Assembly (NCBI RefSeq): GCF_036365525.1
Contig: NC_090375.1
Span: 138,482,982-138,546,981, forward strand
Direction of reading: 5' to 3'
Length of the DNA stretch: 64,000 bases
Source: Heterodontus francisci
Lineage: Eukaryota
The notes under the pieces were generated by a model. The model saw nothing but the letters and a program-made list of their open reading frames with translations. It was not told where the DNA came from and searched no databases. Both the position numbers and the translations under genes were made by a program. Below, piece after piece: positions 39,360 to 58,000 of the stretch. The first letter of the stretch is position 1, and each line of letters opens with the position of its first letter.

Positions 39360-42300
39360 TCACTTGGGTGGTAAGATGCTGTGCCTCCATCTTGTAGATT
39401 TGGCATTTGTTGCTCTCAGTGGTGAGTTGGCACACTGTACAGGCGATGTTGTGTCACTTGCTGGTGATGTTGTTAATGTTGTCTCGTTGGATAGTAATGT
39501 TTCCGGTGTTGTTGATGGTCTTTTCTGTTGTTCCAGCTTAGGTGTAGGTCAAATATGGATTCTGTTCCTTCTCATTTAGTTACCGGTTTCAATCTCAAAG
39601 ATATATGATCTTGGAGTCTTAGCTTCACTAACAACTTTTGCTGGGCTCCAGGTTTTCATGATTGGATACTATACATGTACAGTTTGTCTTTTCAACAGCT
39701 CGGGTAGGGATCTAGCATATTTGTTGAAGTGTTGCTCTCCTCTTACCTGTGCTTCAGTGAGTTGTTGTCTCACTTCCGCCTGGTCACTTGAAGAATGTAT
39801 TTTGCTTGGCAGAGTTGTCTTATATTTTTTTCCATTTAACAGCTCTGCAGATGATTTCATGTCAGTCTTGAGAGGTGTGGATTGGAGTGACAATAAGGCC
39901 AGGTTTGGGTCTTCCTTCGTCTCTCGGCATTTCACAAGTGTTCTTTTGACCGTCTGGATGTGTCTTTCTATAAATCCGTGTCCCCATGGGTAGTGTGGTG
40001 ATGAGGTGATGGTGTTGAACCCATACTGCAGCGAATTCCTTAAATTCTCTGGATGTATATTGGGTGCCATTGTCACATATAAACCTTTCAGGAATCCCTT
40101 GCTCAGTGAACAGAACTCGTACTGCTGAGATTATTGTTGTGGCTCTCAAGTCTTTCATCTTCCGGATAAAAGGGAATTTTGAGCAGTAGTCTGCGATTAT
40201 GAGATATCATTCTTGATTCTGTGTGAATAAATCGACTCCTACAGTATGCCATAGTCTGGGTGGTGCTTCAGTAGCTATCATCTCCTCCTCCTGTTGTGAG
40301 TTTCTGTACTTCTGGCATACATTGCATGTAAACACCATATTTTCGATATCTTTGTATATGCCTATCCAGTACACAGTTGATCTGGCTCTGAGCTTACACT
40401 TTTCCATTCCCATATGGCCTCATGTATCTTTTGGAGAAGTTCTTCCTGCATTGTTTTGGATATTATTATTCTGGATCCGGCCAGCAGAACACCATCTTCT
40501 AGTGAGATGTCATCTCTGATAGACCAGTACTGCTGTATTGCTGGCTGTGTGTGTTGTATCCTATCAGGCCATCCCTGGATCACTTGCTGAGATAGCATCT
40601 GTAACTCCTCATTTTTGTTGGTCTCATCTCTAATTTGACTCCATTTTGGTGGTGTTACTTGCACTAGGTGATGAATCTTTAGGCCTAGATCTTCTATCAC
40701 ATGTTTCTCCGGTGGTGACAACCGGGATAAGGTGTCTGCCAGTACCATTTCTCTTCATGGTTTATATTTCAGTGTGAAATCATAACTCAGAAGTCTCAAG
40801 AGTAACCTCTGCTGTCTTGCTGGTGCTTTACATCGATTTTTCTTGTAGATCTGCTCCAGTGGACAATGATCACTCTCCACTTTGAACTTCCTCCCATAGG
40901 GATATGTGTGGAACTTCTCACATCCATACTCGACTGCCAAAAGCTCGCTCTCTATGTTGGCATATCTTGTCTCAGCTGCTGTCAGAGCTTTGGACGCAAA
41001 TGCTATTGGCTTTCCCTCTTGGACCAGGGCTGCTCCCAGTCCTTTTGTGGAAGCATCTACTTATAGAGTGACAGGTTTCTTTCTGTCATAGTACGACAGA
41101 CTTGTCTCCTTGCACACAACCTTTTTGAGTTTGTTGAAACTCCTGTCATGTGACTCTGACCACTGGCACTCTACATCTTCCTTCATCAGCTCCCGCAGTT
41201 TGCCGTGTGTTCTGACATGTGCGGAATAAAGGAGTTCAAGTATTGTATCAAACCAAGGAAACTTCTCAAGTCTCTCTTATCTCTTGGGGCTTCCATCCCC
41301 AAGTTGGCTGAGACTCTTTCAGGGCTTGGCTTAACTCCATCAGGTGTGTACACCATTCCAAAGAACTGGCATTCTGTTACTTTCACAATGCATTTGTCTG
41401 CATTTAGCTTAATCCCAGATTTCCTGGTTCTCTCCATGGCTTCATGTAGATGGTTGTCATGATCTTTTCCATCTACACCATATATCTGGATATCATCGTC
41501 AATGCCGACTGCTCCTTTGCATCCCCTGTATGTCTCGTCTACTTTTTGGTGGAACACATCCTGGCTCACTTTGAGGCCAAAGGGTAGACACAGGAATTTG
41601 TACCGTCCAAAGCGTGTGTTGAATGTTGACAACAGTGAAGATTCTGCATCTAGTTTCACATTCCAGTAGCCATTTCTGGCATCAAGCTTGCTGAAAACTT
41701 TTTCCCCTGCCAGTGCTGGTGTGATTTCTTACAATGTTGGAATAGGGTAGTGATCCCTCTTTATTGCTTGGTTAAGATCTTTGGGATCTAGACAAATTCA
41801 TAGCCGTCCATTTGGCTTCTCTCTCACCATGATAAATTTACCCAATCTGTAGTCTCTGTGACTCTGGTGATCACCTTTTTTTCTTCCATTTCTCGGAGCT
41901 CTCTTTCAAGCTTTCCTTTTTGTTCTACTGGTACTTTCTGTGGGGGATAAATCACTGGTTTCATCACTGGGTCAATCATGATGTGATACTTAAAATCTTC
42001 GAAGCATCCAACCGAATCATCAAAACACTCTGGTTCATTTGTAGCAGATCTTCTTTGCTCCTTATTAGAGGGCGCTTTACAACGGGTGTACTATCTTCAA
42101 CCCTCAGTGTCACCTTCTTCACCTCGTGGTTTACTGAGATAATCTGCAGCTCTTCACAACTGCTCAACCCTAGGATAGCTGGACCATCTGTTTCTGTGAC
42201 GTAGAACATACAGTCAGCATCTTTTCCTTTGTGTGTCCCTCTGACGTGGGTTGTTCCTAGCTGTTGAATTTCAGTTCTCCCCTATGCTGTTAGCATGGCG

Positions 42301-42430
42301 TTGTTTGGTTTCAGAGCACTTTCCCTTGGACTCCAAATTTTCAGGAAAGATCTGCTGGTACAGTCTGAGTGGGATGATGTTACTCTGCACTCCAGTATCA
42401 ATCCTCACCTTCAGATTTATTGTTGTGGGC
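39360..42430 (-). pseudogene. Gypsy pol remnant (PR, RT, RNase H, IN), frameshifted
   Basis: PR 'IDTG'. RT 'LDARNGYW', 'LPFGL', 'GIDDDI'. RH 'DAS..GLGA', 'ESDH'. IN 'DNGTQY', 'GFIERHIQT'. Confidence 0.9.
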
Positions 42431-42727
42431 TTATTTCTCAGCTCTTCCTGATCTGAATGGTTGTGTGAATTTCTTTTCTCTGGGAACTGTCACATCCAGA
42501 CATTTCATGCAATTCTATGGTTCCTATGTCTATCATGTTCTCAAACCCATCGCCATCTTCCAGGGTATGGATGTTTTGTTTTCTTTCACTATTCCTTCGT
42601 CCTGCTACTCTGGCTCTAATGACTCATCTACCACCTTCTTGCCTTGTTCTGCACATCTTTTCCCAATGATTGGTCTTTCCACATGCTCTGCAGATTGATC
42701 CATATGCTGGACATTTCCTTCTATCTG

Positions 42728-43381
42728 TCAATTCATGTGGTCGTCCATAACTCCTGCACGTCTTTCTCTCTGGTGTACATTCTTTAGTTGTTGTTTCACT
42801 GCATTGACCCTGCTGCCTGTCTCTTGGCTTAACTGAAGGCTAGCCATTTGGGAGGTCAGAATCTTCATCTGTCTGCTCGTGACTTCATGTGCTCTGGCAG
42901 TGTTTACAGCCTGCAATACTGTGAGCTTGTCCTGTCCGATTAGAGCTTTCTGTACTTCAGGATGTGCAGAACCCCAAATGAGCTGATCTATCAGCCATTC
43001 ATCTGTGCCCTTAAATTTACATTTTCTGGCTGCATTTTTCAATCTTGCTACAAAATTGTCAATAGACTTACCTAGTTCCTGTCTGAGGCCTTGAAATTCA
43101 TATTGGTATATCAGATGATTTGATTTTGGCTGCAGATGGGTGCTGAATCTTTCAAAAATGTTGTCTGGGTTTCTGCTGTCCTCTTCATTTAGGTCCCAGC
43201 TGTTAAATAAATGTAATCCTTTATCTCCAGCCCACAGAAGGATATAGCTGACCCTCTCCTCTTCACTAGTGCCTTTTAGGAAACTGCTGAATGCTAAATT
43301 GCACATTTGTTTAAACTTCTCAAATGCCTCTATGACATCATCATCTCCCTTATTCATGATGGGCTGTAGCAATGCATTCAT
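42728..43381 (-). pseudogene. Gypsy gag remnant
   Basis: 'EERVSYILLWAG', 'QELGKSIDNFVARLK' and 'LIDQLIWG'. Confidence 0.85.
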
Positions 43382-43809
43382 TCCTGTCTTGCTTGACAGT
43401 TTGTTTTTTACTTAGAGTTTTCACACAAGTCTCTCAGTTTTTCTTTCTCTCTCTCTGGCACTAATTTGGGTCACTTTTCTCAATCTGATGCTTTTAAAAA
43501 TGTTCTAGGTTAACTCACAAATACTCGCTGCCACCATGTTTCATCTTTATGTTATTTTCTGGTTCCCAGATGTTGGAAAGAATCACTCTTTAAGCTTGGA
43601 AAAGACTGGAGTCAGTCTTGTTTAATTCAGCACCATGCTTTGTGCTATAGAACCTGATTCCACCGGTTCTTGTGTTACATATAACATGACTCCCCAGTCC
43701 AGCTGTGAATGTGGCTCCCTACTGAAACACTTACATATAACAAGTGGTTCCTAGGTAATTAGCTCCTCACACTTCACAGATAGTATAACAATATATACAT
43801 ATATAACAA

Positions 43810-44482: not shown

Positions 44483-46291
44483 TGGGTCAGAATTTTACAA
44501 CCCCTGCAGGAGGGCTAAAGGCATGGGGGTGGGGGTGCGCAAAATTGAATGGGAGGTGGTGGGTGCAGTTTCCGTCACCTTCCCGCCCCTGTTGCAATTT
44601 TACGAGTGGCAGCAGAGGTGAAAAACTGCCTGCCTACCCCAGGCCAATTAAGGCCCTTATGTGGCCAATTAATTGCCTCCTCCTGCCACCACTGCTTATA
44701 TTACCACATATTACCAGTGGCAGGCGGATGTTTCAATAGCTCAGAAGGCTGCCCAGTAAAATCTGGTGGCCTCCTTGTGGGCTGTAGGCAGGGGGGATGG
44801 GGGCGGGGGTGGGGGGGTCCCTTCTGATCGGGCACCCTGTGCCCGATGGAGGGATCCAGCCCCCGACACAAGCCGTCCATGCTGGAGCAGCTCCCCTCCC
44901 CATCTCGAGCGACCCCCCCCCCCCCACCCCAACTGATTGTCCCTGGCGATGCCCCATACACTTACCTGCATTCCCATACCTTGCCCATTATGCTGGTCCT
45001 GGCTGGGTGCAGTCCCAGCAGTGGCCACCGCTCTTGGTGGCAATGCAGGAACTGAAGAGCTGCTGGCCTGCTGATTGGCTGGCAACTCTTTGAGGCGGGA
45101 CTTACTGCCTCAGAGGGGTGTGCAGCACCAGCTATCTGGCCATTTTTATGAATTATATTTTGAATCCAAAACCCCAATAAAGAACTGTACTGTTTGACAA
45201 GCTTGTGGGACTGGCTTAGGGAATAGGATGGACTGGCAGGAGTTTCGAACCAGGCTAACCTGACTAAGGTGCATTCATATGCAAACGGCCATTTCACACT
45301 GACAAGCTGGGGGAAAGAGAACCCAGGCCGATTGACGTCATCACCATCCCCCGAGAGTTAACTCAATAAAGCACAGTCACGACTCAGTCCCAACCAAAAC
45401 TGGCAGAAGGCAGGAGATGGCCAGGCCATTGTCTTCCAGGAGATAAGCCAGTTAAGCAAGATCGGTTTGAGATTGAAACCTGCTAATGGGGGCCGTCAAC
45501 TGAGGAAACGACAGACATCCAGTAATCGGCACTCATTGTCTCTCCACATGCCAGGCCTGCATGTGGGAAAACATAATACCATTTTCACAAAGATTTCAAA
45601 GGTTATGAGTCACTCCAGGGCACAGGAGGGGGCGGTCCAGACAGATCACCTGAGTCAATACATCGATCAGTATTGGCTGGAGAAAAGGTGATGGGTTTTG
45701 GATATATATGGAGCCGGTGCTGGCTCTTCTCTCTTCTCCTCGGCATCAATCTACAGCGAGTCTCCCGAGTGGGGCTTGGTTCAATTCAACGGAACACCAC
45801 CAGAAGCTGAGCTCTGCTCTTCATCCCTCATCAACGGACCTCGACTCAAATTGAAACTTGGATACTGTGTTGGCGATACGGAAACAGGAGTGAGATGTAC
45901 AGGCAGAAGCTGCAAGCAAGACAACGGGCAATCGGGGTGAGCATATTGCCTGCGCCTACACATCCACAAGACCACTTAACTGTGTGAGGGAGTGATTGTA
46001 AGTCCCACCAAACCTTAGAGGGCTTTAGTGCTGGGGGTTCTGTGATAGTTTATTTCACGGGAGGGTTCTTTTATTAGGCCGCAGTAATTTAGCATGGTAG
46101 GGCTTGTTGAACAAGCCAGGGTTGTACTGTTTTGTACTGTTTGTGAGTGTTATTGTTAACTTATTAAACATGATATGGTTGAGGCCGAAAAACCTGGGTC
46201 CGAGTCTGATCTGTCCATATAATCCCTATCGTCCAGAACTTGTAGTAAGAGGTGTGTTTTCGGTACGCCGGAGAAAACCACTTACAGATAT

Positions 46292-49289: not shown

Positions 49290-50789
49290 AAGGAGTTTTA
49301 CTGTCTGTAAATATGTTGAATTGAATTGTTTGTATGGCATAGGAAACGGGACCCCAGGTGTAATTGATAAGTAATGTACGGTTTGGTTGAGACCCACAAT
49401 GCGCCTCCCGCAGCAGAAGGCAATGACATTCGTGATATTTCTGGTTTTGGTGACAAAATACCAAAGGGGGGAATGTAGCACCAGCTTTCTGCCTTCTTAT
49501 CTTAAATCGAAAATCCCAATAAAGAACTGTACTGTTTGGCAAGCTTGTGGGAGTGGATTAGGGAATAGGATTGACTGGCAGGAGTTTTGAGCCAGGCTCA
49601 CCTGACTAAAGTGCATTCATATGCAAACGGCCATTGGTGCACAGCAAGATCCCACAAGCAGCAGTGTGATAACAGCCAGCTACACTGACAAGCTGGGGGA
49701 AAGAGAACCCAGGCCGATTGACGTTATCACCATCCCCCGAGAGTTAACTCAATAGAGCACAGTCATGACTCAGTCCCAACCGAAAATGGTGGAAGGCAGG
49801 TGATGGCCGGGCCATTGTCTTCCAGGAGATAAGCCAGTTAAGCAAGATCGGTTTGAGATTGAAACCCATTACCTGCTAATGGGGGCTGTCAACTGAGGAA
49901 ACGACAGACATCCAGTAATCGGCACTCATTGTCTCTCCACATGCCAGGCCTGCATGTGGGAAAACATAATATCATTTTTTACAAAGATTTCACAGCGGGG
50001 TGGGGCGGTCCTGATTGATCACCTGAGTCAATACATCAATCAGTATTGGCTGGAGAAAAGGTGATGGGTTTTGGATATATATGGAGCCGGTGCTGGCTCT
50101 TCTCTCTTCTCCTCGGCATCAATCTACAGCGAGTCTCCCGAGTGGGGCTTGGTTCAATTCAACGGAACACCACCAGAAGTTGAGCTCTGCTCTTCATCCC
50201 TCATCAATGGACCTCGACTCAAATTGAAACTTGGATACTGTGTTGGCGGTACGGAACCAGGAGTGAGATGTACAGGAAGAAGCTGCAAGCAAGACAACGG
50301 GCAATCGGGGTGAGGATATCGCCTGCGCCTACACATCCACAAGACCACTTAACAGTGTGAGGGAGTGATTGTAAGTCTCAACCAAACCTTAGAGGGCTTT
50401 AGTGCTGGGGGTTCTGTGATAGTTTATTTCATGGGAGGGTTCTTTTATTAGGCCGCGGTAATTTAGCACGGTAGGTCTTGTTGGACAAGTCAGGGTTGTA
50501 CTGTTTTGTACTGTTTGTGAGTGTTATTGTTAATCTTATTAAACATGATATGGTTGAACCCGAAAAACCTGGGTCCGAGTCTGATCTGTCCATATAATCC
50601 CTTTCGTCCAGAACTTGTAGTAAGAGGTGTGTTTTCGGTATGCCGGAGAAAACTACTTACAGGTGGAAGTCCTGCCTGAGGCCACGTAAAATCACGGTGT
50701 GGCTTCCAGGCCCTGTGGAGGTGGGCTCACCACCGACTTTTACTGCCGGTGGGAGGGGCTTCCGGTCTACTTAAAATTCCAGCCATAGT

Positions 50790-52283
50790 GTCTCTTCCCT
50801 CTTTAGTTGTCCGTGGCTGCCTTTTTAGCAAATAAAACGCTTGCCCTTAGGGATAGAAGCTGGTGTTACATTAAATTATTCTTTGAACACCTCCCACTGG
50901 TCTTCTGTCTTTTTACCCGTTAACAGATTTGCCCAGTTTCCTGTGGACAGTCTCTGTCTCAACCCCTTGATGTCAGCTTTACTGAAATCTTGAATCCTAG
51001 TAGCTGGTTCACATTTCTCCCTTTCAAACACTGTGTTGAACTCAATCATATTATGATTGCTGTTAGACAAATGTTCACAAACCATTAGGCTGTTAACTAA
51101 ATCTGGTTCATTACTCATTACTAAATCTCATATGGCATGCCCTCTTGCTGGCTCTAGGACATATTGTTGCAGAAAACTATCCCTGACACACTCAAGAAGT
51201 TCACTATCTTTCTGATATTTGCTAGCCTGCTTATTCCAATCTGTATGGAAGTTAAAATCCCCCAATTAAAACCACTCTTCCTTTCCTACATGATTGTTTA
51301 ATCTCAGCATTTATACAATTTACCACTTTGCAGCTGCTACCAGGTGCCTAGACACAACACTCACTACAGTCTTAAATCCTTTACTATGACCTAATTCTAT
51401 CCATAAATTCTCTACTACCTGTTTAGCTCTTGTTATATCCTCTCTTATCATTGAAGTGATTTCATCTTTAATCACTAAGATTACACCTCCCTATCTACCA
51501 TTTTCATCAATGTGAAACATTAACTGTTCTCTCTCCGCAGATGCTACCAGACCTATTGAGTATTTCCAGCATTTTTTATTTTTATTTCAGATTTCCAGTA
51601 TCTGCAGTACTTTGCTTTTGTCTTAGTAATGGCTATCATGTCATACCCTCCAAGCTAAATTTGTGCCTGCAATTCATTCAATTTGTTCCTTACTCTCCGT
51701 GCTTTTGTATACAGCATGCTAATTTGGGCCACATATTTCTTCGTTCTCGCTCCTGGTTTAATTACTTTACATCTTTTAGTTTTTTTCCTTTACATTTAGT
51801 GTCTAAAGCACAATTTCTGACTGTTACTCTACTCTCTTCCTTTTGTTTGTTTTTGAACTATTATTTCTACTTCCTTTTCCATATGAGCCCTTCCCCCCAA
51901 CTTAGCAGTTAAAGTCCTTGTTACCGCCCTATTTATCCTTTCAACTAGGAGCCTGGTCCCAGCCCATTTCAGGTGGAGCCCAGCCCAATGGTGGAGTTCC
52001 TTTCTGTCCCAGTACTGGTGCCAGTGTACCATGAAATGAAATCCCTCTTGCCCACATTGCTCCTTCAGCCACATGTTCACCTCCCTAATCTGCTTATCCC
52101 TTTGTCAATTTGCACACTGCTCAGCTAATAATCCAGAGATTATAACCCTTGAGGTCCTGTTCTTTAATTTAGCTTCTAGTTTCCTGGTATTCTCCAAACA
52201 GGACCTTTTGCCTACTCTTTCCTATATTGTTGGTCCCAACATGGATCACACCAACTGGATCCTCCCCTTCCCTCTCCAATATT
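50790..52283 (-). mobile_element. CR1 LINE 5' part (ORF1 SGNH-like and endonuclease)
   Basis: 'NMWLKEQCGQEGFHFMVHW..GLHL' and 'EHLSNSNHNMIEF'. PLE fragment at ~51512-51620. Confidence 0.8.
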
Positions 52284-53109
52284 TGTTGCATGTTGTCTTA
52301 ACCTCTGTGTTGGCTGCTACTATACACAAAGCACTGATCACTAAAGACAGGATCAGTAATGCAGTAATGTGGACTCTTTATTTAAGGATGGTTCTGCATG
52401 TACAGACAGATCTTCACTGTACAGGTACATACTTAAGACTGCCCCCAACACAGACGTCACATGGTGTGTAATATCACAGCTCTACACTGCTGGCCTGATA
52501 ACATAGCCATACCTCTTTAGGGTGTATACACACACACAAAATCATTCTTTTCCCAAACAGAAACTCAAATAGGTAAAGCATTAACTATATACAATTTAAC
52601 AATAGTAATATTAACCACCTGCATGGTACGAAACAGTAATTGAAACATGGGAGTACATTAGTCACGGTAACGTAAGGGTGGTTTAATCAACTTGCATGAT
52701 TTAGAAACAGGTTAAGAGTTCTTAGAATCCAGAGCAGATTGTGTGCACTCGACTCTAAGGAAGTGGAATGCATAGACTCTGCTTAGGGATTTGCCTTCGA
52801 TCTAGTCCGATTTGCAATAGAGTCTTCCATGGATCTGGGATCATAGACTGTTCTGATCTGACCCCTATTCCTACACAATTTAGCACCAGTAGAAGTAGTA
52901 ACCTTGTATGAATGTGATTCTGGTTGAATCCTGGAGACTAGTGCAGTACTCCATGTACCAGTTACAGGATGCTGTATCATAACCTACTGTCCTACCACTA
53001 ATTTTGAAAGTTCACTCCCAGCATGACTGTCAAGCACCTCTTTCATTTTTCCCTTTTGCTCCAAAAGAATGTCCTTAAGTTCAGGGTAGATTATTTTCAC
53101 AGGGATGTG

Positions 53110-53385
53110 CTTTGTTTCAGGTGCCTCTGCACTGAGCACAGTCTGAGCTGGAGATGTTGTAGACTGCAGCAACAGGCTCTTCCTTCTTCCTCAGTCTCTT
53201 CTTTAGGTATCTTGAAGCCACAAGATGGGCAAAAGTTGAAGACAGCTTCTATCTTCTGGCCACAATATGGGTAAAATGTAAAGATCATTCTGAGACCACG
53301 GCCTTTCTTACACTCACTTGCTTCAGGGTCTTTCCGAGTCAATGGCTGAAGCCAGGAGGGATGCGGTGCTTAGCGCTGCCCAATG
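53110..53385 (-). pseudogene. vrk3: Captured host fragment: 5' UTR and N-terminal zinc ribbon, VRK3-like
   Basis: ATG at 53288 gives MIFTFYPYCGQKIEAVFNFCPSCGFKIPKEE. The recalled human VRK3 N-terminus is MISFCPDCGKSIQAAFKFCPYCGNSLPVEE. Confidence 0.6.
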
Positions 53386-54696
53386 CCATGTATAGTTACC
53401 AGGCTCAAATCCTTTCACACCTGTAGTCCAGCTATAGCAGGTCGAGCCATTTGGACGATGTCAAAAAGTTTGGATTTCCAATCTGAATCATTGCATTTGC
53501 ATGTAATCTTGATGGATCCTAAACATGGGATCGAGGATCCATTGTATGTGGTAAGTTGGACGTTTGCGGCATCACTATAGCTCACCATTTACCCACATAC
53601 ATGCCTTTTAAGATGTGTAGAGGTAAAATATTTGTGCTGGCACCCATGTCCACCTTCGCCCAGAGCACATATGTGCCCTTCTTTTTTGGACATAGAACAC
53701 AAATAGATTCAAACGCCTTCAGTGGAGTAATTGTATCAATGCGTTTGGTGACATTGAGAGTGCGAAATGACTGTTTCTCTTGCCCAATTGAACTTGGACT
53801 TTCACCGTCATCATCACTAGTGTTGATGTCATCCGCGACCTCGTGGATGTATCGGTTGTGATGTGAAGTATGAGTGCAAAGCTTGTCAGGTCGTGAAGCC
53901 TTCTTTTGGTCTGTTAGACTGTGGTCAGGGCTCTTAACAGCAGCATCTGTCTTGGCTTTCTGACACTTATGTTTTTGGTGATCCCTGACACCACATGCTT
54001 TGTAAATGTTGTTGAATGCTGGGCAACTCTTATGCATATTTAAGAGCCCTTACCTTTTGCATGGTTTCCTGTACATGGAATCCTTATTCAGTTCACCAAT
54101 GCTGTTTGCAGCACATAGGGCTTGTAAACTCTGTTGGCCTGCATTAATAGACTTGAATTTTCAACAATCTCTGAGCAAGGGGTCCACTGTATACCCCTTG
54201 CGCATCTCTAAAAGATCCCTCTGGTATGCCTGTATTCTTGTGGATGCCAGTTCAGTCTCGGTGAAGTTACATTCGCAGTCCTTAGCTCAACATTGACTGA
54301 CAAACTGGTCAAAGGACTCAGTCGGCTTCTGTCAAAAGGACATGAATTTGAGTCGATAGACCGGAAATTTGAGTCTGACACGAAGTTGATCCTCTAATGT
54401 GGATCAGAATTTTGCGGGCTCCTTCGGCTCTTCTTTGGTAAGACCAGAAGTGTTAAGGTGATGTAAGCCTTCATTGTCAATGGCAATGCATATTTTTACT
54501 GCCTGCTTCTGTGGATCCTTGACTGTTAAGTCATCAAAACATAGCTCGACTCCTTGCTTGAAAAGCTGAAATACTGATAGCAGGTCAGATGTTTTTCAGT
54601 TGATGCTAGGGAACTGTGCTGTCATTCTTATAATGACTCCCTGCCTTTGCTCTTAAAATAAATCTCTTGCTGTTCAGGCAAACAAAAATAACTGCC

Positions 54697-54850
54697 TGCA
54701 GTTCCACTTATGAACAAGTTTGGAGGGTGTGGCACTGTCTCCTGCTATAGTAACTGGTTGCAGTTCCACTTGTGAACAAGCTTGGAAGTGTGGCACTATC
54801 TCCTGCTACACAGGCAGAGAGCTGGCTGCAGTTGAAGGATGTGGCGCTGT
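54697..54850. repeat. ~62-bp tandem repeat (2 copies plus a partial) in the Gypsy leader
   Basis: tgcagttccactt.tgaacaag.ttgga...gtggcact.tctcctgcta at 54697 and 54759. Confidence 0.8.
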
Positions 54851-55094
54851 TGCCCAATTCGTGCGCTTTTGTTAGGCCCAGCACACAAAGCTGTCAATCT
54901 GGGAAAGGACTTTGCAATGATAGCCCAGCTTTTTAAAAAAAAAACTTTTGGCTTGGTCGGAACAGGCTTTGGATGGCGCAATCCTGGAACAACCTGTAGT
55001 GAACTTGGATCAGTCATGTTCTCGATGATTGGCAGAACGGGCTCAGGGGTAAAAATGGCCTACTCCTGTTCCTATATTCCCATGTTCCCAAGCA

Positions 55095-58000
55095 ATCAGG
55101 AAGCTGAAGATGTGCTTTAGATGCCTGAACAGATCAGGGGCACCCTTCAGTGTGCACCAGTCCAGGTATCGAGAATGATAGTGGTGCACTGTGCTTTGCA
55201 CAACATAGCACAGCAGCGAGGACTGGAGCTCCAGGCAGAAGAAGTTCCTGAGTGCACGGCCTCTTCGGAGAAGAAACTTGATGTTCCAAAGTCACCTATA
55301 GCAGTGCTCATATTGTTCGGGATGCCAAGGATGGCCTAATTATGGAACAGTTCAGTTTGACTCCAGCAGTATACCCACCTGCCAGACAAATTCTGAAACC
55401 ATTTAACTTCTCCATTCCCCAGCACAAAGCAGTCCACATTCAACAAAGCATCCTTGTCACACACACCCATTGCTTGTCTTTAATTCTTGTCTTACTGGTC
55501 ATCGCAAGTGAGAAGGCCACTTGTCAGGCAGTAGACAAAAATCAGCAAGAGAGAAAATGATGACAAATGATGACAATGTAATCCTTAGATTACAGGACAA
55601 TATAGATGGGCTGGTAAGATGGGTGGAGCAGTGGCAAATGGAATTTAATCCTGAAAAGTGTGAGGTGGTGCATTTTGGGAGGACTAACAAGGCAAGGGAA
55701 TATACAATGGATGGTAGGACCCTAGGAAGTACAGAAGGTCAGAGGGACCTTGGTGTACTTGTCCATAGATCACTGAAGGCAGCAGCACAGGTAGATAAGG
55801 TGGTTAGGAAGGCAGATGGAATACTTGTCTTTATTAGCCGAGGCATAGAGTATAAAAGCAGGGAGGTTATGACGGAGCTGTATAAAATGCTAGTTAGGCC
55901 ACAGCTGGAGTATTGTGTACAGTTCTGGGCACCACACTATAGGAAGGATGTGATTGCACTGGAGAGAGTGCAGAGGAGATTCACCAGGATGTTGCCTGGG
56001 CTGGAGCATTTCAGCTATGAAGAGAGACTGAAAAGGCTAGGGTTGTTTTCCTTGGAGCAGAGAAGGCTGAGGGGGAACATGATTGAGGTGTACAAGATTA
56101 TGAGGGGCATTGATAGGTTAGATAGGAAGAAACTTTTTCCCTTAGTGGAGGGGTCAATAACCAGGGGGTATAGATTTAAGGTAAGGGTCAGAAGGTTTAG
56201 AGGGGATTTGAGGAAATATTTATTCACCCAGCGGGTGGTTGGAATCTGGAACGCACTGCCTGAAGAGGTGGTGGAGGCAGGAAGCCTCACAACATTTAAG
56301 AAGTATTTAGATGAGCACTTGAAACGCCATAGCATATAAGACTACTGGCCAAGTGCAGGAATATGGGATTAGAATGGAATGGATTAGAATATGGGATGAG
56401 TTCCGAAGAAGGGTCACTGACCCGAAACGTTAACTCTGCTTCTCTTTCCACAGATGCTGCCAGACCTGCTGAGTGAATCCAGCATTTCTTGTTTTTGTTT
56501 GGGATTAGAATAGTTGGGTGCTGGGTGGCCGGCACAGACATGATGGGCCGAAGGGCCTGTTTCTGTGCTGTATAACTCTATGACTCTATGACAATGACAA
56601 CAAATAATTTCAATCTTTCAAAAAAATTAAATAAAATTAAGAATCTTACATTGTTAAGCAAGCACATGCATAGGCTTGTGCAACCACAAATCTTTACCCT
56701 TCCTTTTTCTATTCCTTTTACTCCTATTCTACTCCTTTGCTTCCTACTTCCTTTTTCAGGGATGCAACCATAGTGGCTTCAGCAGAAGTAGAGACAGGCT
56801 GCAGATATCCCTACTCTGACTGCTGAGATGCTCATGGCTGATATCCTCTGGGTCATGGAACCCATGAGGGCCCTGCCAGATACTGTCCCACATGTACCTA
56901 TGCGGGGATTGACTCGGCCATCGGGACAGGAGGCAGCTTGTGGGGCACTGACTGAGGGGGCGCAATGGGTGATAAGTGGATGGGCTTTGAGCAGAGACCC
57001 CAATCCCATGTCCCTTTCACAGCCCACATGCACTTTACTGCTCACAATGAGCTGGAGAGCACTTTACTGTGTATCAGTGGGGTTCTAAAGGGTCAAGGCT
57101 AGGTTTTCATCAATCCTGTTTAAGGTGGCTTTCAGAGTTTTCAAGCCATTGGTAAGCACCAGCATGCATTTGTTGAGCTGCTACATTAGATGCTTGATGC
57201 AGATGGGCACTCTTTTCCTTGACTTAGACATGATCGCAAAGGCCCGAGCCATCATAATACTCATCCTTGAGACAGACTCCTCCAAACTCTCTCCATGCAT
57301 ATGCAGTGCAGCTGGAAAGGCTGTCAGCACCGCACACATTTTCTTTTGCTGTCCCATCATAGTCCTCTTCATTGAGGCTCCCAAGGCTCAGCACCTGCAT
57401 CCAGCTAAGCAGAGCTTGGAATGTCCTGTGTCCTCTGACGGAGACTCTCCACTGCTGCCCCTGTCTCCACCACCTGCTCTTGCTCACTTGTGATGTGTAC
57501 TTCACCATGTGAAAATCCAATTAACATTCTTGTTGATCCCACCGAGATGTGTGTATCTGAGCTGGTTGATGGTCTGCATGAGCCCTGTGATGGTCCATCC
57601 TCCGAGTGAGTGACCTCCTCTGAGTAACCTCATCCTCCTCCTGCACCACCTCCTATCGACTGCTTGATGGGCCTGTGGGATTTGAAAGACATAATGCAGA
57701 ACTGTCAAGGTAAGAAGATATTAAGTCATTATTGTGCACATTATCATATTTCATTGGCTGCTGACATCAAGTCAACATGAGTAACTGTTGTATGCCATAT
57801 GGCTGTGTGACATTTAATTCTGTCACCAGGTATCCTGAAGACCCTATCTCTCCATCTCTGATAACCAAGCATGCCAAGATTGGTTTGTTTCCAGCACTTC
57901 CTCCTCTGAATGGAGATGACTGGAGGGCCACCTCCAGTTCTCTGCCCTTTCCTGGTGTTTTGTGATCACTTCTCCTGCAAGGAAGGAAAGAACAGACCTA

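Follow-up and report, generated by a model that had tools for sequence, protein, structure and literature searches.

A dispersed, defective Ty3/Gypsy family of Heterodontus francisci that carries a spliced piece of host vrk3 mRNA, probably captured once by template switching

How does the 5' end of a host gene come to lie inside a retrotransposon, and what has become of it there? The question is raised by a stretch of 64,000 nucleotides (nt) of the Heterodontus francisci genome (NC_090375.1, positions 138,482,982-138,546,981, assembly GCF_036365525.1), referred to here as the window. Its minus strand contains, from about 55008 to 52284, a decayed long terminal repeat (LTR) element with the order leader, gag, protease, foreign segment, integrase tail, polypurine tract and 3' LTR. 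The original prediction, made from the sequence letters, was that the foreign segment is the 5' end of the gene vrk3, captured from host mRNA in place of pol. That interpretation is supported by the analysis described here; what it missed were the copy number, the two subfamilies and a signal of selection. We consider it very likely that this is a defective Ty3/Gypsy element in which a spliced 5' piece of host vrk3 mRNA replaces reverse transcriptase (RT), RNase H and the integrase core, and that it had a single origin by template switching and was spread by intact relatives. The insert is spliced, it replaces part of pol, it has microhomology at its junctions, and it occurs in a multi-copy family with paired LTRs and target duplications, whose two subfamilies match two kinds of insert-free relatives (helpers).

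The VRK3-like zinc-ribbon peptide starts, as predicted, at the minus-strand ATG at 53288-53286. It matches Pfam Zn_Ribbon_1 with 26.2 bits (cut-off 25; E 6e-6), and all five of its database matches are shark VRK3, at 86-89% identity, so that the best matches are to the host protein and not to a ribbon encoded by a transposable element (TE). A search of the genome with shark VRK3 located host vrk3 at C17:62716402-62753009. The foreign segment aligns to three separate host places, namely the final 76 nt of a non-coding exon whose end lies at 62699574, exon 2, and the start of exon 3. The host introns between them (16.8 kb and 1,036 nt, both GT-AG) are absent from the insert, in which the exons are joined at the host splice sites and are not collinear with genomic DNA; this bears out the proposed route through host mRNA. 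Host vrk3 is spliced at the same joins in contigs of three runs guessed to be RNA, all from one sample. The parts of the insert are as follows.

53380-53084, minus strand: whole vrk3-derived segment (the 3' part of non-coding exon 1, a complete exon 2 and 64 nt from exon 3).
53290-53380, minus strand: 3' part of vrk3 exon 1 (5' untranslated region, UTR), matching C17:62699499-62699574; reads through in frame as a linker.
53148-53289, minus strand: vrk3 exon 2, to codon 48, 85.7% to C17:62716397-62716542; two small indels here.
53288-53286, minus strand: start codon of the VRK3 peptide, inside vrk3 exon 2.
Within the exon 2 part, minus strand: C4 zinc ribbon with Cys 6, 9, 20 and 23 (Pfam PF13240).
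53084-53147, minus strand: first 64 nt of vrk3 exon 3, to codon 69, 91% to C17:62717577-62717643.

The GC-richer leader described ahead of the peptide is present (56% GC versus 43-45% on either side). The 3' bound had been put at about 53110, but the vrk3-derived segment reaches 53084, 26 nt further, and the stretch KHIPVKIIYP, which had been read as integrase, is vrk3 exon 3. Nor is the copy disrupted by a single frameshift, as had been proposed: its VRK3-derived part has one small indel near 53183 and another near 53167, and the protease has breaks too. In the zinc ribbon of the window copy, Tyr takes the place of Cys 6. A PDB sequence search with the peptide gave nothing significant, and an ESM Atlas search gave generic zinc-ribbon clusters below 0.9, which are leads only.

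The insert retains 15 nt that are lost from the present host exon 1, and four residues characteristic of the host protein (38, 48, 53 and 57) are absent from it, which indicates that the capture is old and of shark type. The same 15 nt are found in the read-through N-terminal extensions of catshark and ray VRK3, so it is the host that lost them. An in-frame insertion made by the element was considered for these linker nucleotides, and was rejected because catshark and ray carry them. The host 5' UTR exon (L039:9499-9574) has no stop in frame with the start codon, and it is translated as an N-terminal extension in several gene models of sharks and rays; judged from sequence, it possibly represents a real upstream-initiated isoform.

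What the insert replaced can be seen in the helpers, which were found by searching with the integrase tail and core. They match the window as far as 53377 and then again from 53091. The same anchors are 285 nt apart in the chimera and 2122-5584 nt apart in helpers (12 loci), which confirms the loss of RT, RNase H and the integrase core. In the least disturbed helpers the replaced stretch, from RT to integrase core, is approximately 2.1-2.3 kb. RVT_1 is above the Pfam cut-off in helpers, and Integrase_H2C2 and rve are slightly below it. Helper L058 has the order protease end, RVT_1, Integrase_H2C2, rve, which is that of Ty3/Gypsy, while RNase H gave no Pfam match in helpers and is placed by position only. 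The Gag of natural copies has degenerate motifs resembling a double zinc knuckle; two CCHC arrays in Gag are described for the Mag clade of Ty3/Gypsy (PMC2577118).

No vrk3 match was found in any of 55 loci without the insert (15 picked for lacking a zinc-ribbon match, 40 by integrase-core similarity), so the segment does not belong to intact family members, and more distant relatives of the element also gave no match to the insert. These results bear on the opposite direction of transfer, in which the VRK3 zinc ribbon would derive from the element. No support was found for it, and it can practically be dismissed: two canonical introns interrupt the host segment, a pattern that refutes it, and the segment is present in 14 sharks and rays but absent from the helpers and, by lack of an insert match, from distant relatives.

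The helpers, like the chimeras, fall into an A type and a B type (see below). With their aid, the junctions and the backbone of the window copy are laid out as follows.

53377-53380, minus strand: 5' junction microhomology of 4 nt, GGCA, common to host exon 1 and the protease end of A-type helpers.
53084-53091, minus strand: 3' junction microhomology of 8 nt, ATCTACCC, common to host exon 3 and A-type helper integrase in the identical reading frame.
52783-53091, minus strand: integrase C-terminal tail; helper L062 has the same sequence after an rve-like core, in one 365-aa frame.
53377-53720, minus strand: aspartic protease region, broken in the window copy, with a KVDMGAS motif; collinear with helpers up to 53377.
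53720-54625, minus strand: gag with degenerate zinc knuckles, broken in the window copy; start codon 54625-54623, boundary with the protease approximate.
54626-55008, minus strand: 5' leader with a duplication of 62-nt period, from the window sequence.
52545-52554, minus strand: polypurine tract, at the equivalent position in 12 other copies.
52284-52544, minus strand: 3' LTR of about 255 nt, TG...CA, from LTR comparison among copies.

The protease reading stops at KDLSLVTIH as described, ending at 53388. For the chimeric copy, no 5' LTR was found within the window. Its expected site is occupied by 55043-55340 and 55512-56339, which we take to be a Harbinger-like nuclease fragment and a CR1/L2-like RT C-terminus with a 275-aa frame, respectively. 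There is no tRNA gene in window 50000-58000. In one helper locus (L055:190-1750) the leader repeat of about 60 nt is expanded to about 25 tandem units, with open frames of 279-415 aa.

A check for microhomology had been suggested, and it is present at both junctions. The 4 nt at the 5' junction are exact in 7 of 12 aligned helper loci, two B-type helpers being different. The 8 nt at the 3' junction are exact in 5 of 12 A-type helpers and have at most one mismatch in 11 of the 12, and are exact in none of three B-type helpers. The chance of such microhomology from random breakpoints is 0.017 for 4 nt, 1.4e-4 for at least 8 nt and 1.5e-5 for a sum of at least 12 nt. The event that we envisage is that the reverse transcriptase in a particle would have switched onto a co-packaged vrk3 message, and then back, at these short shared sequences.

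The same spliced insert, with microhomology, would also be expected if a processed vrk3 pseudogene or cDNA made by a long interspersed nuclear element (LINE) had been copied into the element at the DNA level by microhomology-mediated repair, and LINEs are abundant here. We regard this as very improbable. A strict first look, which sets only a floor, found no vrk3 retrocopy with kinase exons among 97 scored matches. In the alignments (30 copies of subfamily CA and the displayed subset of CB), the host-piece junctions show neither vrk3 sequence from further downstream nor poly(A) or a target duplication, and the 105 loci inspected contain no intron, exon 4 or upstream exon-1 sequence of vrk3. 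Moreover, the main text of PMC5131818 reports replacement together with microsimilarity as the pattern of LTR template switching.

The window copy had been treated as a single event; it is one of many, with the number of copies well above one hundred. Searches with the insert gave 138 DNA candidates and 150 scored protein matches out of 190 candidates, one of which is the host exon. Both junctions are present in 82 of the 105 distinct loci inspected, and at least one in 102. First-look candidates, which are not copy numbers, were 138 and 118 for two inserts and 130 and 127 for two helper cores; the chimeric family is thus dispersed, and about as numerous as its helpers. Paired LTRs were found in 27 chimeric loci, with Kimura two-parameter distances (K2P) of 0.10-0.20, like those of helpers, and by this measure all chimeric copies are old. 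The LTR K2P is 0.140 for helpers (n=5), 0.145 for CA and 0.151 for CB. The chimeras therefore have an autonomous partner of like age, with LTR, polypurine tract and backbone in common. Two chimeric copies with identical scores, C20:16259163 and C20:17001448, lie 742 kb apart and are probably a segmental duplication.

The element is nonautonomous: it lacks RT and the integrase core, and yet is dispersed with its own target duplications. Given established LTR biology, the copies must have been mobilised in trans, presumably by intact relatives. The 5-bp target duplication is exact in 8 of the 27 copies with paired LTRs and has one mismatch in 7, counts that are inflated by the use of sliding ends.

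Contigs that span a junction, at less than 90% identity, occur at low depth (about 5-20) in three runs guessed to be RNA. These come from one sample, do not represent the window copy and may be DNA or pre-mRNA, and are not used as evidence. One chimeric copy occurs in all three (X5 record 11, X6 record 19, X7 record 26), and its match ends exactly at window 53092, where the 3' microhomology has its edge. In other species, a search with the chimeric protein gave 4 matches among 787 candidates, all VRK3, and in a profile-free search of 50% representatives the best stretch lay in the ribbon for one of the best 150 of 730, which is stingray VRK3. Since decayed elements are rarely annotated, these protein searches are not evidence of absence.

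The number and structure of the subfamilies bear on whether there was one capture or two. CA, to which the window copy belongs, has a complete insert. The 5' junction is identical in CB, where 9 nt are added ahead of the start codon, 1 nt is missing from the later part of exon 2, and a deletion of 44 nt has taken away the 3' junction. The join of exons 1 and 2 is seamless in 37 of 38 CA copies and 35 of 40 CB copies, and that of exons 2 and 3 in 38 of 38 and 36 of 40. The helpers also form two subfamilies, PA and PB, which are sister lineages with respect to an outgroup family (51 versus 38 changes, p 0.2); descent of B from A was rejected on this basis. The net divergence in gag/tail is 0.003/0.006 for CA-PA and -0.002/0.000 for CB-PB, and is 0.22-0.24 between A and B. 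This backbone pattern is broken only in the last approximately 50 nt of the protease, where CB differs from PB at 13 columns, being private at 10 and A-like at 3.

A change at codon 8 is found in 32/38 CA and 39/40 CB copies, and one at codon 16 in 36/38 CA and 38/40 CB copies. Both are absent from all 14 shark and ray VRK3s, which argues for one capture. When polarised by the host, 18 of 117 ribbon-region positions have changed in CB and one in CA; over 76 linker positions, CB has changed at 17 and CA at 3, and the host differs at 11. These observations are explained most simply by a capture that would have occurred in an A-type backbone, after which the cassette would have diverged during element replication and, comprising the last ~50 nt of the protease and the insert, would have recombined onto a B-type backbone; the order of events after the capture is our reconstruction. 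Co-packaged family members are described in PMC6894440 as recombining during reverse transcription.

This history leaves some points that weigh against it. Template switching itself is not something that sequence allows one to observe. CB residues 30 and 32 are also found in stingray VRK3, and residue 30 in sawfish. The LTR ages of CA and CB are no different (0.145 vs 0.151, p 0.34), which means that the divergence of CB must have been fast on the host clock, and no CA-CB intermediate was found in 24 further loci. The equal ages and missing intermediates are not fully explained.

An alternative is that there were two captures, the CB piece coming from an older or foreign elasmobranch vrk3, in which case the synonymous excess between CA and CB would be host gene history. 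The ray-like residues, the equal LTR ages and the sister relationship of PA and PB would all suit it. We nevertheless find it very unlikely, because CA and CB have an identical 5' junction and share the changes at codons 8 and 16. Furthermore, positions 5, 12 and 13 of CB do not have the ray residues, and CB is altered at 4, 21 and 34, where no host varies. The A-like columns at its protease end, the absence of the exact microhomologies from B-type helpers, and a synonymous excess within CB that is independent of CA (below) also speak for a single capture. Repeated refreshing of CA from vrk3 mRNA was considered separately and is unsupported, since host-like alleles are unclustered, with a maximum of 3/12 per copy. 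One CA column, 125 nt after the start codon, is host-like in 12/38 copies, reflecting either an early CA split or an old host polymorphism.

Following a single capture, has the captured piece been doing anything? Both junctions are in frame, giving gag-protease-linker-VRK3 1-69-integrase tail, and a single polyprotein of this composition may have been made. Two natural copies, L032 and L031, have open frames of 519 and 439 codons, respectively, over protease, linker, ribbon and tail, and 13 of 78 chimeric copies are still open across the insert. Taken column by column from the gag start, the frame has no stop in CB and one in CA, this column being a stop in 10 of 20 copies and CpG decay in the rest. 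Across the insert the fused frame is stop-free in both subfamilies, and the off-frames have stops. In CB the 1-nt and 44-nt losses together make 45 nt, and the gain of 9 nt keeps the frame.

The ratio of nonsynonymous to synonymous substitution rates (dN/dS) between CA and CB is 0.18 in the protease, 0.51 in the linker, 0.12 in VRK3 codons 1-39 and 0.11 in the tail, and 0.68-2.3 off frame. All four ribbon cysteines are kept between CA and CB; this, with the ribbon dN/dS, makes it likely that the piece was constrained in the element. Third positions hold 12 of the 19 CA-CB differences in the ribbon codons (p 0.007). In neutral simulations kept free of stops, eight or fewer residue changes had p 0.003-0.007 at the observed transition bias (kappa 2-4), and p was at most 0.025 at any transition bias. 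Within CB, the synonymous to nonsynonymous counts of non-CpG variants are 6:3 for shared variants and 18:78 for rare ones, and the rare ones look neutral. A second CB set of 30 copies, picked by the linker alone and overlapping the first by 12, gave 9:9 and 25:89 (p 0.019). From these comparisons of sequences we judge that the zinc ribbon was probably constrained while it was riding the element.

Several results point the other way. The signal rests on 19 substitutions; the plain test of fixed against all private changes is non-significant (p 0.075); the linker has no signal of selection (p 0.22-0.24); and CA copies have no internal signal (3:5 vs 20:98). Over the 39 codons, 8 amino acids have changed in CB, three of them at positions invariant in the 14 hosts, which indicates a constraint weaker than that on the host gene. 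The frame-shifted CB codons 40-54 have a synonymous excess too (4:1 vs 6:31), which points to general constraint on the polyprotein rather than to a job specific to the ribbon. In this frame, the UTR had no stop even in the host.

These points lend weight to an explanation with the same capture and spread in which the VRK3 piece is a passenger, all that is needed being an open translatable gag frame, for RNA packaging or for escape from nonsense-mediated decay. In its favour, too, four cysteines would survive 19 random changes with a chance of about 0.2. However, the simulation was already conditioned on the lack of a stop and still gave the low p values above, and the ribbon dN/dS is similar to that of protease and tail and lower than that of the linker. 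We therefore rate the passenger explanation as somewhat unlikely, although a real contender.

If the ribbon was indeed selected, the following could explain how. The gag part would package its own RNA, so that selection could act on the protein of a defective element; by this means it would have kept the frame open and the ribbon foldable. Our preferred guess is that the ribbon was a folded module, binding nucleic acid or protein, that kept the polyprotein competent for particle assembly. A function specific to the ribbon is conceivable from the sequence comparisons, at slightly less than an even chance. It is comparably tentative to see the host zinc ribbon as a working, selected module of a parasite's parasite, which would have given the defective element an advantage, been kept through a compensated frameshift and some 20 substitutions, and passed between helper lineages. 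If true, a retroelement would here have domesticated a host domain, whereas the usual course runs the other way, and the donor gene, the junctions and both helpers could all be recovered.

Retroviral integration complexes use BAF. The N-terminal region of VRK3 is reported as needed for BAF phosphorylation (PMC13030254), but VRK3 is reported in PMC3381236 not to have inhibited integration complexes in vitro, and the captured part is only residues 1-69; a link between BAF and the captured ribbon is a guess. The eight BAF-family matches in the genome are exons or one broken copy: two genes are in tandem at C44:21066046-21074890, one is at C13:23261306-23276744, and an intron-less broken copy is at C40:7482730-7482974.

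Acutely transforming gag-onc retroviruses are replication-defective and helper-dependent, and in them host exons take the place of pol and are fused in frame to gag. The vrk3 element differs from these in having no env, in its germline spread, and in its 69-codon non-catalytic piece with no transforming sign. It may be regarded as a fossil record of the step taken by oncogene-transducing retroviruses, in a non-infectious vertebrate element.

The mechanism, capture by LTR template switching, is a known one; what is unusual here is the copy number, the two helper lineages and the likely selection on a captured host domain. The closest likeness is to the LTR-mediated retrocopies of Tan et al. 2016 (PMC5131818), as described in its main text: partial mRNAs replace internal open reading frames (ORFs) in sense orientation with both LTRs kept, microsimilarity marks both points of switching (a median of 6 bp, against 4 and 8 in the vrk3 element), and some act as nonautonomous elements. 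The window copy has only its 3' LTR, whereas 27 other chimeric loci have both. The retrocopies have one to few insertion sites each (18 for nine), compared with more than 100 inspected copies, two helper backbones and a selection signal in the element lineage here; the word 'purifying' is absent from that main text. The same source describes FAM8A1 in a human endogenous retrovirus, likewise a vertebrate host mRNA in an LTR element with microsimilarity; it is an untranscribed pseudogene, and in a retrovirus rather than Ty3/Gypsy.

Maize Bs1, as cited in PMC13317346, is also an LTR element with spliced host gene fragments and a chimeric ORF, and a title cited there mentions 'nonrandom mutation' of the captured fragment, a precedent for selection on a captured piece. 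Bs1 is from a plant, with three donor genes and a proposed host function, while the vrk3 element is from a vertebrate, with one donor, fusion to a gag-pol remnant and no host function indicated. In the autonomous-nonautonomous partnerships described in PMC6894440, flanks are common with helpers through recombination; here it is a host-derived coding cassette that passes between backbones. The LTR elements of bdelloid rotifers (PMC5408684) are animal elements with cellular-type domains, but as reported there these are in a separate ORF3 of complete elements, with no significant departure from neutrality, and the vrk3 element differs from them in that its donor gene, exons and junctions are traceable. 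The literature searched, which did not extend to repeat databases or to the majority of subscription papers, gave no report of a vrk3-carrying element.

Most known cases of mRNA capture by LTR elements have one copy or a few, and the vrk3 case is a dispersed family. Its depth permits a test that is impossible with single copies, namely whether selection favours a captured host domain because it benefits the element. It is also a clean case for asking whether many TE-borne 5' ends of a gene affect the donor through small RNAs.

Two further elements lie in the window. At 39669-43411 on the minus strand lies another Gypsy-like element of a different kind, whose open frames are gag-, RT- and integrase-like and which by eye resembles the unnamed polyproteins P0011 and P0053. 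Direct repeats of approximately 1.1 kb, at 45156-46287 and 49498-50662, are 91-98% identical and 4.37 kb apart, and represent a younger LTR element with short internal frames.
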